Source: Oligoflexia bacterium
GTDB taxonomy: Bacteria; Bdellovibrionota; UBA1018
NCBI GenBank assembly: GCA_963758495.1
Contig: CAVWVI010000003.1
Location: forward strand, 640,001 to 704,000
DNA length: 64,000 nucleotides
Reading direction: 5' to 3'
Shown one piece after another: positions 1,679 through 59,623 of the stretch. The notes under the pieces are model-generated. The model saw only the letters and a program-made list of their open reading frames with translations. It did not search any database and was not told where the DNA came from. The first letter of the stretch is position 1. Each line of letters opens with the position of its first letter. Both the position numbers and the translations under genes were made by a program.

Positions 1679-1714
1679 GTAGTTACTGTAAGGAACCCTA
1701 AAGGAACTGCTTAC
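1679..1714 (+). mobile_element. 36-nt short form of the GTAAG...CTTAC miniature element
   Basis: GTAGTTACTGTAAGGAACCCTAAAGGAACTGCTTAC matches both ends of the 101-nt copies; flanked by GATTCGAA (1671-1678) and GATTCGCA (1715-1722). Confidence 0.75.
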
Positions 1715-1788: not shown

Positions 1789-2940
1789 ATGACTTCATTG
1801 GAGTTATTGATTTGTGTAGTGCTCGTTTTTTTGTCCGCCTATATGTCAGCCTCGGAAATCGCCTTATTTAGTCTTTCAAAATTCCAATTGAGGTCTTTAA
1901 AAGAGAATTTTAGACCGGTTCATCGTAAAATAAAGCGCCTCTTATCGGATCCAGGGGGCTTACTCATTACCACGCTTGTTGCAAATGAAGTCCTCAATAT
2001 AGCTTTAGCGTCATTCATTACAGAATTTGTATCTCGGAATCAGGCGTCCACCCATCTAAGACTCAGTCACATCCCTGATTGGGCATCTCAAACTTTAATC
2101 GGAATTTTAATTGCAACTCCCATCATCCTTCTTTTTTGCGAGATTACCCCCAAGGTCATCGCCGCACGAATGAACCGGCTGATTGCCATACTTACCGCCG
2201 GCCCTCTCAACATCATTTATGACCTATTTAAACCCATCCGCTACGCTTTAAAAATAACTGTAGCCATGATTATTCGCCTTATCCCTTCCGAAAATAAAAG
2301 AAGAATAGTGCTCTACCCAGAAGTGAATTCAACCGATACTACGAAGCATGAGACTATTCTCAAAGAGTCCGACTTTCTTTTAATGGTCGAAGAGGGTCAT
2401 AAAGAAGGCGCGATTCAAGAGGAAGAACTTGAGCTCATCCGTAATGTATTTGAACTCAACAATACCCCTGTATCAGAAATCTCAACGCCCCTCTCTCAAG
2501 TTTTAACGTTACCTGTAACCACCACTATCAAAGGAGCCTTAGCAGCAGTTCGAAATCAAAAATATTCTCGAATTCCCATCATTGGAATGAATCGAAAAGA
2601 AATCGTAGGCATTTTATACTCCAAAGATTTACTGAGATCCAAAATTCAAGCCGACAGTTTCCCAGATACGGTAACCTCGCTCATGCGTAAGCCCTTTTTT
2701 GTTCCACCCACTATGAAGCTCAATGCTCTCTTCCGACGATTCAAACAACATAAAATCCATATGGCTATAGTCAAAGCACCCAATGGCGAAATCACTGGGG
2801 TCGTGACTATGAATGACATTCTAGATGCTCTTTTTGAAGATCTTTTTACAGAAGAGGATTTACGAAAAAAATCAGAACATCCTCCTTCACGAATGCACCC
2901 CCATCATAAGAAACAGACTTCCGGGAGAAAAATCAAGTGA
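1789..2940 (+). CDS. CNNM/DUF21 + CBS-pair membrane protein (hemolysin/CorC-like)
   Basis: SASEIALFSLS N-terminal DUF21 signature, EITPK, YSRIPI and CBS repeats. Confidence 0.9.
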   Translation: MTSLELLICVVLVFLSAYMSASEIALFSLSKFQLRSLKENFRPVHRKIKRLLSDPGGLLITTLVANEVLNIALASFITEFVSRNQASTHLRLSHIPDWASQTLIGILIATPIILLFCEITPKVIAARMNRLIAILTAGPLNIIYDLFKPIRYALKITVAMIIRLIPSENKRRIVLYPEVNSTDTTKHETILKESDFLLMVEEGHKEGAIQEEELELIRNVFELNNTPVSEISTPLSQVLTLPVTTTIKGALAAVRNQKYSRIPIIGMNRKEIVGILYSKDLLRSKIQADSFPDTVTSLMRKPFFVPPTMKLNALFRRFKQHKIHMAIVKAPNGEITGVVTMNDILDALFEDLFTEEDLRKKSEHPPSRMHPHHKKQTSGRKIK

Positions 2941-4208
2941 TCACGCTTACAGTTTGGAAGCTCGTTGCAATGGTCACTCCACTTACAATCATAGAAGGTT
3001 TCTTTGCAGGTTCAGAAATCGCACTTCTATCTGCAGACAAACTCACCCTTATACAACAATCTAAACAAGGAAATACTCGAGCATCCTTAGCTTTAAAATT
3101 AGCAACTCACCCGGAACAAGTATTTTCAACCACCTTACTCATCACAAGCATCTGCGTCATCAGTAACTCAGCACTCATAGCTCTCTTTTTCTTAGAACAA
3201 TCACTCAAACATGCTGAATGGATAGCAGTCCTTGTCACTTCACCTCTGGTTGTCCTTTTAGGAGAACTCATTCCAAAAACAATTTACCAGAGGAATGCCA
3301 ACTTTTTGGCACCCTGGGTAGCCTATCCTATCCATTGGACGTATTGGTTATTTTACCCCATTACTCGGATTTTATCTTCTTACACAAATCGTCTCTCTCT
3401 TATCATTGGGCCTATAGAAGAGTTGCTCGCAGGAAGACGAAAAACGACTCGAGAGGAAATACGGGCACTTCTCTCATATACAAGAAATGAAACGGAGATC
3501 AAAACAAACGAAAAAAGAATGATCAAACGTATATTTGATTTTCGGTATTCCGAAGCGCAGCATGCGCTCATTCCTCTAGTCAGGGTAGACGCCATTGATG
3601 AGTCTGTTTCAGTTAAAGAAGCATTAGAAAGCTTTGAACGACATCGGCATTCTAGAATGCCTGCATATTTGGAACGCATCGACAACATCGTGGGAGTGAT
3701 AGAAGCAGTTGATATCCTATTTGCTACCGACCTGGAAGAGCCAATTAGTCACTACATCACTCCTGCCCAATACGTTCCGGAAACACAACCCCTTGCAGAC
3801 CTCATGCTTGATATGCGGCGAGAAAATCATGAAATGGCTGTAGTCGTTGATGAACACGGTGGGGCTGTCGGAATTTTGACGTTTGAAGATATTGCCGAAG
3901 AAATTGTTGGAGAAATTAGTGATGAGTATGATTACGAATCCCTGCCTTTCAAGGCAGTCTCAGAAACAAGCTGGGTCGTCAAGGCCAGCATGGAAATCCA
4001 GCAAATAAACGAGATCTTAAAACTTGAACTACCTGAAGGAAACTATGAGACTTTAAGTGGATTTTTGCTTCAACAATTTGGAAGAATTCCAGACATAGGA
4101 GATGAATTGTTCTTTGACACTCCTGCAGGTGCTTTCAAATTTACGATTCAAAAAGCTACCGAGCGACATATAGAAACCGTGCTGATTCAAAAAATGGAAT
4201 CCATCTGA
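2937..4208 (+). CDS. CNNM/DUF21 + CBS + CorC_HlyC protein
   Basis: FFAGSEIAL, GELIPK, HSRMP, VVDEHGGAVGILTFEDIAEEIVGEI, YETLSG; overlaps the upstream stop codon. Confidence 0.92.
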   Translation: MITLTVWKLVAMVTPLTIIEGFFAGSEIALLSADKLTLIQQSKQGNTRASLALKLATHPEQVFSTTLLITSICVISNSALIALFFLEQSLKHAEWIAVLVTSPLVVLLGELIPKTIYQRNANFLAPWVAYPIHWTYWLFYPITRILSSYTNRLSLIIGPIEELLAGRRKTTREEIRALLSYTRNETEIKTNEKRMIKRIFDFRYSEAQHALIPLVRVDAIDESVSVKEALESFERHRHSRMPAYLERIDNIVGVIEAVDILFATDLEEPISHYITPAQYVPETQPLADLMLDMRRENHEMAVVVDEHGGAVGILTFEDIAEEIVGEISDEYDYESLPFKAVSETSWVVKASMEIQQINEILKLELPEGNYETLSGFLLQQFGRIPDIGDELFFDTPAGAFKFTIQKATERHIETVLIQKMESI

Positions 4209-4268: not shown

Positions 4269-4679
4269 ATGCAGAAGACAGTGCTCATTGTCGATGATAT
4301 TTCTTTCGTCAGAAAAACTCTCTCAGATATTTTAACAGCAGCACATTATCAAGTGGTTGGGGAAGCATCGGATGGCGCAGAAGCAGTGAATCTGTACGCC
4401 CAACTTCGACCCGATATTGTGACCATGGATGTAGTCATGCCCATGATGAGCGGAATTGATGCCACTCGACGAATTATCAAAGCCGACAAACATGCTAAAG
4501 TAATAATTATTTCAGCCATGGGCCAAGAAAATCTCGTTATGGAAGCGATCAACGTTGGAGCAAAAGACTATATTTTAAAGCCTTTTAGTACTGAAGACAT
4601 TTTAAAAACCGTTGAGCGAACGCTGCAAGGTGAACAAAACATCTTAGCGCGATCGACTCACCGGGAGAAACTGGGTTGA
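4269..4679 (+). CDS. CheY-like single-domain response regulator
   Basis: VLIVDD, phosphoacceptor TMDVVMP, ISAMGQ, KPF. Confidence 0.9.
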   Translation: MQKTVLIVDDISFVRKTLSDILTAAHYQVVGEASDGAEAVNLYAQLRPDIVTMDVVMPMMSGIDATRRIIKADKHAKVIIISAMGQENLVMEAINVGAKDYILKPFSTEDILKTVERTLQGEQNILARSTHREKLG

Positions 4680-4720
4680 GTGGGATTTAATCAATTAATC
4701 ATGAAAAGGCAGGAAGCCGC

Positions 4721-5257
4721 ATGATTGCACAGGAAGAGACAATACGAAGAGTAGTGAATGCATTACCGCATGAATTTCAATTTTATCATCTTGGAAAAGT
4801 AGAATTGCAATCCATTGATGTAAGCACTGCAAGGAGTCCTGTTGCGCCGGGAATTCAACTCTTTACGGCGCAACAGGACTCCTTGCAATTCTTGTCAACA
4901 GCCCTAGAGGAACTCATTACCATTGATTTTAAGGAAACCGATGCGATCGCGTACCATCTTTTTGGAGACTTACGAGCACTCATCATTATCCTTTTTGCAA
5001 AGGATTTAGATTTCGCGACTTATTCTGAATTGGGCAATGTACTCGCAAGTAAAATAGCCAATCAGTTGAGCTTAGACAACGGAGCAGATATTTTAATTTC
5101 TCCCCCACAACAGCTGAATCACGCTCAAATAGAGCAACTTATCCAAAATAAAAATACGGTTATCAGACGAACTTACACACACTTGAATAAAAACTCGGTT
5201 ATTCCTATAGCAACCTGGGTCTTACCGACTCCATCAGAAGGGTTTGGATATGCTTAA
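4721..5257 (+). CDS. CheC/CheX-like phosphatase-fold protein carrying an in-frame 36-aa element-derived insertion
   Basis: SELGNVLAS...ISPP resembles the CheC E-xx-N...P motif; directly downstream of a CheY-like gene; insertion 4820-4927. Confidence 0.6.
   Translation: MIAQEETIRRVVNALPHEFQFYHLGKVELQSIDVSTARSPVAPGIQLFTAQQDSLQFLSTALEELITIDFKETDAIAYHLFGDLRALIIILFAKDLDFATYSELGNVLASKIANQLSLDNGADILISPPQQLNHAQIEQLIQNKNTVIRRTYTHLNKNSVIPIATWVLPTPSEGFGYA
4820..4920 (+). mobile_element. 101-nt palindromic miniature element inserted in frame in a CDS
   Basis: Colinear with the copies at 20657 and 24786 (opposite orientation); 22-bp perfect stem TGCAAGGAGTCCTGTTGCGCCG/CGGCGCAACAGGACTCCTTGCA; direct repeat CCATTGAT at 4812-4819 and 4920-4927. 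Confidence 0.9.
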
Positions 5258-5576
5258 AGCAATTGGTTCTTGTTTAAAGATTTTGACCTTTTCAATTCTT
5301 GTATTGATTTTAGGAAATTGGTTCAAATGGGATGGCAGAACGATTTCAGATCAAGTAAAGTTTCACATGGCTCATGCTGAACGTTCCGAAACACTGAATA
5401 CGGTTCGTGAATGGGCACAGAAAATCACTCATGAAGCAAGCAAAGGGGCGCATATTAAATCCATCCATTTCTCCTCTCCTATGACTGTCACAGTACCCGA
5501 AGAGATTTCCCCTTCCGAAAGACAAAAACTTAGAGCACTCATCCAAGAACTCAATAGTTCACATAAAAAAGATTAA
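5244..5576 (+). CDS. Hypothetical protein with N-terminal membrane anchor
   Basis: ORF with a hydrophobic N-terminus overlapping the upstream gene. Confidence 0.65.
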   Translation: MDMLKAIGSCLKILTFSILVLILGNWFKWDGRTISDQVKFHMAHAERSETLNTVREWAQKITHEASKGAHIKSIHFSSPMTVTVPEEISPSERQKLRALIQELNSSHKKD

Positions 5577-15352: not shown

Positions 15353-18300
15353 TCAATACTGGTAATGGAATGACTGGGAATCATGACCAATAGTACCAAT
15401 TTGATAAGTGAACGAGTAATCGATTCCATCTCCAGTTTTCAGCCCCTGAATGACGAGACTCCAGCTCTTATCTTGAGCTTGTATCATTCGAACATTTTGT
15501 TGCAGACCATTTTTATTCACTAGATAGTGAATATCCACAAATCCAAACCCAACCGATGAATTAGTTGGAATGACAGTAATTGTAACTTGTCCATTTCCAC
15601 TCACTACAACGTTTTGGCTCAAATCACCTACCGGCGTTGGCGTTGGCGTTGGCGTTGGCGTTGGTGTTGGCGTTGGTGTTGGCGTTGGCGTTGGCGTTGG
15701 CGTTGGCGTTGGCGTTGGTGTTGGCGTTGGCGTTGGTGTTGGCGTTGGCGTTGGTGTTGGCGTTGGCGTTGGTGTTGGCGTTGGTGTTGGATTCACACTT
15801 GGATAGATAAATTGAAACAGACTCGAATCATGACCAATAGTGCCAATTTGATACGTAAAAGAATAACTGAGCACATCACCTTGTTTCAACCCAGATATAT
15901 TAAGACTCCATGTTCCGTCATTAGCTTGCACCATTCGGACATTCTGCTGAGGATTAGCTTGATTTATTATATAATGGATATCTGCAAATCCGAATCCTGT
16001 TGATAGATTACTTGGAGTGAGAGTAACAGTTACTTCTCCATTTCCGCTCACTACAACCATTTGAGTAAAATCACCTACTGGCGTTGGTGTTGGCGTTGGT
16101 GTTGGCGTTGGTGTTGGCGTTGGCGTTGGTGTTGGCGTTGGCGTTGGCGTTGGCGTTGGCGTTGGCGTTGGTGTTGGCGTTGGCGTTGGCGTTGGTGTTG
16201 GTGTTGGTGTTGGTGTTGGCGTTGGCGTTGGCGTTGGCGTTGGTGTTGGTGTTGGTGTTGGCGTTGGTGTTGGTGTTGGTGTTGGCGTTGGTGTTGGTGT
16301 TGGTATTGGTGTTGGTATTGGTGTTGGCGTTGGCGTTGGTGTAATACCTCCTTGTGATGAAATCAGTGCACCGGCAGGCACACTTAACTGAGTTCCGTCT
16401 GAAAAATTCACCGGAACAGTTGAAGAACTAGAATTATAAGCTACGTATTGACGAACCCCGTTATTGTTAAATACTGCATAGGTGGGAAGATCTGCAGTAA
16501 CTTGAGTATCAAGTTGACCAAATGTATTTAAATTCTGAATCCAATAATAAGTATGGGCGTTTGTCTCTCCGGTTTCGATAGTGTAATTCAGATTATTATT
16601 AAATTCAGCTACAGCTGCAGCAGGGTTATACAGGGCTTCAATACTCATATGAATATCCCTCCATCTATCAGGATTCGATCCACTATGAGTTCTCATATAA
16701 GTTTGATTGGTTTGAAGATAACTTGGATTTCTTCCTAAATAAAGAGAGCCTCCTGTAACTGGCATAAAATTAATACCGTGCAATTCTTCTCGATAACCAT
16801 CCCACCAGATTGAGTAAGCGCCTCCATCAAGCCAAACCATCCCCAAGGTGGGTTCAGGAAAATCTGATGGAATAGTCTGTTTATCAATATTAAACCAATA
16901 CTGCTCGATCGCGGACGCCTCAGTAGCATAAAGATAAATCCCAAAATCGCGAATCGTATCATTGTGTGTCGCGACACCCCAAAGCATCACACCTGACGAA
17001 AAATTCATACTTTCTGATGAAGATTCTTCGTTATTACCAGCAGCAAAAAGAGAGGGCCCACTCGCCCAACCATGACCAGAAAAGGAATCAAACATTCGTA
17101 AAAATGGAAATCGACTGTCCGTTCGGTCCCAGTTATTCGCGTCCTTAATTAAAAGTTCGACCATGCCACCGTATTGACTTTGGGATGCCCAGTTCGAATC
17201 ATATTGAGCAATCGTTGCTGCTGCTTGAATAAAATAACCATAATGAAAATGATGATCATTTAATTGAGTATCAGTTCCGTAACTAGCAGGATAGCCAATG
17301 AGAGTGTTCCAAGTAGAATCATAATAAAATTGACGCGAGTTTTGACCTTGAAACCAGTCCTGCAACCCACTTTTTAATTCGGATAAGAAAAGATCACGTG
17401 CAGCCGTGTAATTAATTTGATCTGCGATGCGAACTAACCTTGCAATTCGACCTAGAGCCTTTCCATACCAGTAGGTATCAGTCCCTGCATTAACACCCCA
17501 ACGATCAGATGGGCTTAGATTATAAATATTATTAACATACTGATAAAGTTGGGCAGATGAAAAACCGTTTATTCCATCTTGTGCTACTAAAGGTAGCTCA
17601 GGTAGAATTCCATTGAAAGTTAATTGAGTTGAAAAACTTGAAGCATCGACTACTTTCATCGTTCCTCGTGAAGAAACATACGTGTAGGAAGTAACCGGAT
17701 CACTCGAATTCATCCATTGATGACGAAACAAAGCTATCAAGGGTCGATTTACATTATTATTTCCACTCTCTTTTAAAACAGTGTCCGCACTATATTGAGT
17801 CACTATCTGAGCGTGCGTTGAATCATAAGTCCAATTAACACTCGTATTTACAACAAATGCATAAGCATGCTGTCGATAAATTTCAAGAGTACTTGTTGTA
17901 TTATCAGGCAATACTGCAACTGAAAGATAGTCTTGTCCATTTTGACTTGACGTTAATTGCGTTGAACTCGGCGAAGTCCAAACTGACCCCGAGGGAGCAA
18001 AGATTCCGTAATTATGTCCATTAACACTAACGCCCAGAACACCACCGTTTTGATACCAGACGACCGGAGTACTGCTAAAATTAATTACCGCATTGCCTCC
18101 GTTTACACTAAAATAAGCATACGGAATACCTTGACTCATTGTGCTTTTTAAAGTTCTAACACCATCACTCCAGACCGCTGTCACAGCCCAATCAGAATAA
18201 CTTTCAACTTCAGTGTCAGAAGAAGTTAATCCTTGTACACCTACACTCAAATCTTGCTGAAATCCATAATGATATTCATGAACCGTCAATCCTAAATCCG

Positions 18301-20656: not shown

Positions 20657-20757
20657 GTAAGTAGTTCCTTTAAGGCTGTCGACAAGCACTACAAGGAGTC
20701 CTGTTACGCTGTAAAGAATTGGATTCCCGGCGCAACAGGACTTCTCGCAGTGCTTAC
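20657..20757 (-). mobile_element. 101-nt palindromic miniature element
   Basis: GTAAGTAG...GTGCTTAC; flanks CGCTCTAA (20649-20656) and CGTTCTAA (20758-20765); between convergent genes. Confidence 0.9.
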
Positions 20758-24785: not shown

Positions 24786-24886
24786 GTAAGTAGTTCCTTT
24801 AGGGGTGTTGATTAGCACGATAAGGAGTCCTGCTGCGCCGTAAAGATTTGAATTCCCGGCGCAACAGGACCCCTTATCGTGCTTAC
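24786..24886 (-). mobile_element. 101-nt palindromic miniature element with perfect 8-bp TSD
   Basis: GTAAGTAG...GTGCTTAC flanked by TGTTTTTC at 24778-24785 and 24887-24894. Confidence 0.93.
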
Positions 24887-46358: not shown

Positions 46359-46382
46359 GTAAGCACTAAAGGAACTACTTAC
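46359..46382 (+). mobile_element. 24-nt minimal form of the GTAAG...CTTAC element
   Basis: GTAAGCAC|TAAAGGAACTACTTAC = fused ends of the 101-nt element; flanks ATAGATCC and ATAGATAC. Confidence 0.8.
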
Positions 46383-46398
46383 ATAGATACAATAATTC

Positions 46399-59587: not shown

Positions 59588-59623
59588 GTGCGTAGTTCCT
59601 TTAGGGATCCTTGCAGTACTTAC
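59588..59623 (-). mobile_element. 36-nt short form of the GTAAG...CTTAC element
   Basis: Reverse complement GTAAGTACTGCAAGGATCCCTAAAGGAACTACGCAC is colinear with 1679-1714; no TSD recognisable. Confidence 0.7.

Follow-up and report, generated by a model that had tools for sequence, protein, structure and literature searches.

Rickettsia palindromic elements (RPE), as described in the passages cited here (PMC10969869, PMC2229807), are lineage-specific repeats of about 100-150 nt that lie in frame in conserved genes, and a guanylate kinase bearing one is described in the latter source as active, the effect of the insert being neutral or slightly harmful. Palindromic elements of Wolbachia are likewise reported, in the cited part of PMC4224334, in frame in addA, addB and priA, apparently without inactivating these genes, and in-frame fusions are described for ERIC/RU-1-3 and NEMIS (the 107-bp Correia element) in the cited parts of PMC2759123 and PMC2229807. 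Among the insertion sequences of the IS66 family, ISPsko1 is given with the end GTAAGC in the excerpt cited (PMC12888890), and elements of the ISBst12 group with a single ORF and 8-nt repeats (PMC12898284, in the part cited).

The locus studied here lies in the window (the whole 64,000-nt stretch of DNA that was analysed), and consists of a 101-nt palindromic MITE inserted in frame in a gene for a protein of predicted CheX/CheC fold. Like RPE in the sources cited above, the element is a lineage-specific palindromic repeat of about that length that sits in frame in a conserved gene. Unlike RPE, which have a much larger share of coding copies and one conserved peptide, it is coding at 5 of its 78 loci and uses three frames; furthermore, it has clear 7/8-nt duplications and GTAA ends, and its host lineage is Bdellovibrionia-like. 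The parallel with RPE drawn in the earlier note is thus supported by the in-frame palindrome and by orthologs without the segment; since searches elsewhere did not turn up the element and the likeness is one of mode, with no sequence relation expected, we do not claim that it belongs to RPE. With ERIC and NEMIS, as far as the cited parts go, it shares the habit of a mostly intergenic MITE with open frames and occasional in-frame fusions, which use differing frames and also reach into signal-peptide regions, whereas those elements have TA ends and this one has GTAA ends with 7-8-nt duplications. The Wolbachia elements, on the other hand, are described in the cited part as longer and occur in an endosymbiont of an unrelated lineage. 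The ISBst12 group of IS66, in the excerpts cited (PMC12888890, PMC12898284), resembles the element in its GTAAGC or GTAAC ends, imperfect terminal repeats and 8-nt direct repeat, but the element here has no transposase, and about half of its clear duplications are 7 nt.

In the host gene, CCATTGAT is found at 4812-4819 and again at 4920-4927, a spacing of 108 nt inside the ORF 4721-5257 (Table 1), just as the earlier note had claimed. The MITE at 4820-4920 is read in frame from its first base and covers the entire 101-nt family consensus in a gap-free alignment (94/101 identical; 83-86% match to two other copies in the window). Since the element itself ends with the C at 4920, the target duplication is the 7-mer CATTGAT, and the eighth matching base is a coincidence. 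The frame is kept because 101 + 7 = 108 nt. It had been proposed instead that this copy was one base shorter than intergenic copies adding 109 nt; neither part is correct, because no consensus base is missing, the duplication is 7 nt rather than 8 nt, and two of the four exact 7-nt cases in the genome are intergenic. The frame itself is as had been described: the ORF of 178 aa is open, residues 34-69 are the 36-aa peptide quoted, and its removal leaves 178 - 36 = 142 aa. The drift reported at the right end is also real, with base changes at element positions 96 and 97 and a damaged right terminal repeat. The 28-bp hairpin far exceeds chance (z -6.8; 0 of 200 shuffles as strong), and no promoter or terminator match was obtained at window 4600-5300. 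The hairpin, the duplication and the homologs without the segment support the in-frame insertion of a palindromic mobile element; the insertion is real, and its mechanism is corrected to a 7-nt duplication.

Table 1. Coordinates of the host locus and of selected element copies (positions in the window unless a contig is named)
Feature	Position	Strand
36-nt ends-only form just past lon-like gene, 8-nt duplication with one mismatch	1679..1714	+
CNNM/CBS/CorC protein, upstream in conserved gene order	2937..4208	+
Stand-alone CheY-like response regulator, likely substrate (judged from synteny)	4269..4679	+
Host gene, 178 aa, predicted CheX/CheC-fold phosphatase, insert at residues 34-69	4721..5257	+
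Target-site duplication, left copy (CATTGAT)	4813..4819	+
Full-length 101-nt MITE, short imperfect TIRs starting GTAAG	4820..4920	+
Internal hairpin, arms 4822-4849 and 4866-4893, 16-nt loop	4822..4893	+
Target-site duplication, right copy	4921..4927	+
Codons of E103, N106, P128 (E-x2-N-x21-P phosphatase motif)	5027..5104	+
110-aa ORF, no known family, overlapping the end of the host gene	5244..5576	+
Intergenic full-length copy, 8-nt duplication with one mismatch	20657..20757	-
Intergenic full-length copy, exact 8-nt duplication	24786..24886	-
36-nt ends-only form	59588..59623	-
Copies ending 1 and 5 nt before ATG	G000:C1:565241-565296; C4:407197-407297	

The host protein has 26 homologs besides itself, of which one (P0019) is labelled Bdellovibrionia bacterium; the closest is 62% identical, and no sister strain with an empty site at the host gene was seen. 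The stretch from G25 to A77 comprises 51 residues here and 17-32 residues in all 25 aligned homologs (the 104-aa fragment P0023 was left out of the alignment). In the syntenic orthologs, 19 loci fetched from 32 genomes with a match, the same stretch has 17-31 residues (19/19), and the gene order corC, cheY-like gene, host gene and 110-aa ORF is kept in all of these relatives. The expectation that orthologs would be without the insert is hence borne out in both sets, and the loop varies naturally in length among homologs that do not carry it. In the AlphaFold model the pLDDT of the core is mostly above 90, and that of blocks of the insert is 52-67; the model of the insert-free homolog P0002 has the same order of core helices and strands with a short loop instead. 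The insert is thus predicted to lie in a surface loop with the core fold intact, in agreement with the surface-loop position raised in the earlier note; the loop is of low confidence and was already variable.

The description of the host as CheC-like is supported at the level of the fold. In the fold search CheX and CheC rank first (E 3e-5), with CheX 1squ aligning to the host model at Z 10.9 and rmsd 3.3 over 126 residues, and the predicted fold as a whole resembles CheX, CheC and FliY (PDB 1squ, 1xko, 3hzh; Z 10.6-10.9), as do the E-x2-N-x21-P motif and the CheY-like neighbour. Unlike these proteins, the host shows 11-18% identity to them, scores below the Pfam and NCBIfam cut-offs, has A at a D/S position, and keeps the order corC-cheY-gene-ORF110 in genomes without a CheW match. 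A PDB sequence search with the host gave E values of 0.16-0.4 only, all three matches being of CheC/CheX type; PF04509 scored 18.4 against a cut-off of 22 bits and NF041094 16.8 against 280, and the host gene was not among the matches of a PF13690 profile search. Because the family profiles stay under their cut-offs, we call the host CheX-fold and not CheX. The CheC/CheX/FliY phosphatase motif, taken as given in the cited part of PMC12887009, is intact in E103, N106 and P128; its first position, four residues before E, is A99 and not D/S, where the homologs have S in 20/25 and A in 2.

A profile built from 36 copies gave 83 hits in the genome, which merge to 78 loci. The consensus of 101 nt has terminal inverted repeats that are perfect over 5 nt and match at 8 of the first 11, codes no transposase, and is short and present in many copies, as is characteristic of a MITE. 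Among 40 near-full copies the exact duplication is 7 nt in 4 and 8 nt in 4 (one of the latter with an ambiguous boundary); with at most one mismatch, 7-nt duplications flank 7/40 and 8-nt duplications 8/40, or 15/40 together, against a background of 13 (7 nt) and 6 (8 nt) in 1560 cross pairs, and the remaining 25 copies are without a clear duplication. A 36-nt form consisting of the ends only occurs 11 times in the genome and in none of 5 shuffles, and for 5 of the 11 a duplication with no more than one mismatch was seen. Searches elsewhere were negative within their scope. Rfam returned just 7 weak hairpin-type matches, every one below the gathering score; the element was found in 0 of 74 genomes of the same family; two pattern scans of metagenomes gave 0 and 0, in collections that may omit close genomes; and a GTDB scan with the end pattern, where close genomes may likewise be missing, gave 3 chance matches, each lacking the remainder of the element. 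Two 22-26-nt matches in another family were judged to be chance. Neither this element nor any MITE of Bdellovibrionota came up in the literature covered, subscription papers excepted.

Several other observations were made on the family. Among 22 copies without gaps, 27 stem positions carry changes in both arms, and every one of these stays Watson-Crick paired, next to 61 one-sided changes; the paired changes often come in mirrored blocks, and the loop is inverted in at least two copies. Such a pattern would fit correction of one arm by the other, or else selection acting on the hairpin. A stop triplet (TAA, TAG or TGA) is present in many of the duplications. A piece at window 46362-46387 with the right end of the element is possibly an even shorter ends-only form, and at G000:C3:614934-615139 one copy apparently is inserted into the loop of another. 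A second MITE of 165 nt with long terminal repeats is present in 18 copies, with an exact 8-nt duplication in 6; it has inserted into the loop of the 101-nt element at G000:C4:456106-456378 and C4:837032-837301, at the same 8-mer both times. The tail of the 101-nt element has an AAAGGA-type sequence; in two copies (Table 1) the element stops 1 and 5 nt short of the start codon (ATG) of ORFs of 228 and 368 aa, and may supply the ribosome-binding site of these two ORFs. The window also contains long tandem repeat arrays with a 12-nt period (15378-16457, and from about 27485 onward).

Coding insertions are few. In a heuristic gene set that places about 89% of the genome in ORFs, 6 of the 78 loci lie inside ORFs. 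Two ORFs over copies, of 96 and 159 aa, were set aside as probably spurious; real genes account for 5 of the 78 loci, four within heuristic ORFs plus a DegP-like gene. The low number of genic loci despite so high a coding share would mean that most genic insertions have been purged. The count of coding insertions proposed in the earlier note thus yields five genes with element-derived peptides in three different frames, of which two carry full 108-nt inserts, in different frames, and three carry shortened remnants. The second full insert (G000:C4:2169-2269) keeps the frame of a C2H2 zinc-finger gene of secreted type, which has three paralogs in the same genome that are 82-89% identical and are without exactly these 108 nt; the empty paralogs have one GAAAATT and the invaded copy has two, and the 7-nt duplication route is thereby proven at this gene. 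The gene belongs to a tandem family with a signal peptide and eukaryote-type C2H2 zinc fingers in at least 4 copies (G000:C4:1-2495 and C1:573620-574888). As to the remnants, a lytic transglycosylase has about 17 extra, element-derived residues past its signal region relative to 9 orthologs, a mevalonate-kinase-like gene has a 38-nt remnant in a variable loop, and the DegP-like gene, whose start codon is uncertain, has a reversed 68-nt copy in its N-terminal signal region. Three of the six frames of the consensus are open; the frame used by the window copy is open in 5/24 copies of 101 nt, and two other open frames in 20 and 17. In-silico excision leaves an open frame across the junction in 13/40 copies, including two true coding copies; the other cases were read as mostly the removal of a neighbouring stop codon, and none is claimed as a disrupted gene.

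Taken together, we consider it probable that the insert is a tolerated passenger, i.e. that a 101-nt element, likely moved by an IS66-type transposase, entered a predicted surface loop with a 7-nt duplication, and that the CheX-fold phosphatase is likely still working. In this course of events the non-autonomous element would have entered the host gene, likely through an IS66-type transposase, and added 108 nt in a stop-free frame, hence 36 new residues, which would form a predicted surface loop that the protein tolerates without using it. The family yields duplications of 7 and 8 nt, of which only 7 would give a multiple of three; a minority of genic insertions, those in loops or signal regions, would survive, and some survivors would later be trimmed by deletion, as the three remnants suggest.

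The IS66-type mobiliser is probable, judging from the ends, which begin GTAAGC as those of ISPsko1 do. An IS66-like element of 1720 nt is resident in the genome in three copies that are more than 99% identical; it has GTAACCCCT ends (thus GTAA ends), a single ORF and one exact 8-nt duplication, longer than the 7 nt at the host gene. Of its end, 7 of the first 9 bases are common to the MITE consensus, and one 36-nt copy, noticed after the fact, starts with the same nine bases. Its transposase scores 126 against an NCBIfam cut-off of 180, and no IS66 TnpB was found in the genome. Scans of the genome, GTDB and metagenomes yielded no autonomous parent with matching ends, which keeps the IS66-type step at probable; a genome scan for longer elements with both ends turned up just three long pairs besides short and nested forms. 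Four GTAA...TTAC candidates for a parent overlap ordinary genes and were rejected. At two loci (C3:100870-102589 and C4:964964-966684) the resident element has identical surroundings but lies in opposite orientations, and the same flanks enclose a 28-nt form made of the ends only at two further loci (C4:40206-40233 and C1:101722-101749). A possible but doubtful alternative, which concerns the mobiliser only, is a system other than an IS66-type DDE transposase, e.g. a GIY-YIG/Ssn single-strand nuclease cassette or a REP-like HUH system. The strong hairpin with short terminal repeats would suit it, as would the failure to find a parent and the clustering of near-full copies just past stop codons (18 co-oriented against 7 opposite); a hairpin placed past stop codons recalls REP elements. 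However, the 7-8-nt duplications fit staggered DDE cutting, and HUH systems are not known to make target duplications; the three GIY-YIG matches fall within frames 281-577 aa long, none at an element locus; one 36-nt copy begins like the resident IS66-like end; and movement seems not to require the hairpin, as duplications also occur at copies of the 36-nt form, which has no long hairpin.

An unlikely rival to a working host holds that the gene is redundant or decaying, an early pseudogene in which the insert persists through relaxed selection. In its favour, the chemotaxis core looks reduced in comparison with relatives: FliM is found, a single MCP match and a single CheW match are present, the latter within a 402-aa CheA-like fragment, and H-kinase_dim has no match in this 92% complete genome. 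A CheW match is present in 33/40 relatives, mostly several per genome. In addition, a further CheX-domain gene lies at G000:C2:28536, A99 stands where most homologs have S, and the mRNA would carry a hairpin of about -50 kcal/mol. The absent che genes may, on the other hand, reflect an assembly gap, given the completeness of 92%, and the host gene is kept in 6 of the 7 relatives that gave no CheW match, which argues against dependence on the chemotaxis pathway. (The only MCP is found with the CheA-like ORF, without its N-terminal part, at G000:C5:93865-96125, and a copy of the 165-nt MITE lies shortly downstream.) With CheA and CheW near absent and the gene kept in CheW-less relatives, a role in flagellar chemotaxis is doubtful; of the chemotaxis phosphatase next to cheY proposed earlier, the CheX/CheC fold and the CheY-like neighbour stand, and the protein would more likely serve as phosphatase of the response regulator encoded next to it.

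Against decay, the host protein keeps 14/14 invariant columns and matches 57/64 consensus columns, among the highest of the 26. In a neutral simulation with substitution and indel rates from other copies, which assumes that the differences arose after insertion, the probability of an intact ORF was 0.11, 0.07 and 0.02 at 4, 5 and 7% divergence; however, all but one of the 7 differences are also seen in other copies, and the two halves of the duplication are still identical, so that the insertion may be recent and the simulation a weak test. Judged by its sequence the host gene looks maintained, with moderate confidence, and continued purifying selection on it, a near-neutral insert and the CheY-like neighbour as substrate are what we infer.

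Two further readings give the insert a use. The bolder, which we regard as a long shot, is that one element feeds peptide to five proteins in three frames, gated by the 7/8-nt wobble of the duplication, and that in the CheX-fold protein the amphipathic helix of the insert has been recruited as a new interaction surface, rewiring a phosphatase deprived of its chemotaxis partners. The other, the domestication suggested in the earlier note, in which an amphipathic helix at residues 52-66 would now serve as a binding or dimerising element, is scarcely probable. The model does predict a helix there, with a moment of 0.44 reached by 209/10000 shuffles, the frame is open where most copies carry stops, and the terminal repeat is changed at two bases. 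But the translation of the consensus element is equally amphipathic (0.48), and the confidence of the helix is only 58-67. The window copy differs from the consensus at 7 positions, 3 synonymous and 4 not, of which 1 is private to it, and this divergence is ordinary for the family; the two end changes are common to 1 and 3 of the 39 other copies; and three of the other coding copies survive only in shortened form, as would be expected from pruning. As nothing indicates that the insert is useful, domestication is unsupported. Finally, that the insert is a mis-joined multi-copy repeat in an assembly probably derived from a metagenome is exceedingly improbable, given its flanking duplication and copy-specific bases, the contig of 1.68 Mb that carries it, and two 151-nt soil-metagenome records, of which X3 (4732-4882) crosses the left junction and X1 (4880-5030) the right one, each with 0 mismatches, both from one study that is maybe related to the source and neither covering both junctions.

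The passenger reading places this locus within a phenomenon that is itself known, and extends in-frame MITE insertion to a Bdellovibrionia-like lineage. The single genome offers an unusually clean natural series, with two full 108-nt inserts, three remnants, and empty paralogs as controls, and it provides a rule for the entry of a 101-nt element into a gene, namely a 7-nt duplication, an open frame and a tolerant site. The host is small and has a simple predicted activity, which would make the neutrality of such inserts directly testable. The addition of protein segments by selfish DNA is a known route and is real here, and the 36 added residues are likely tolerated by the host protein.
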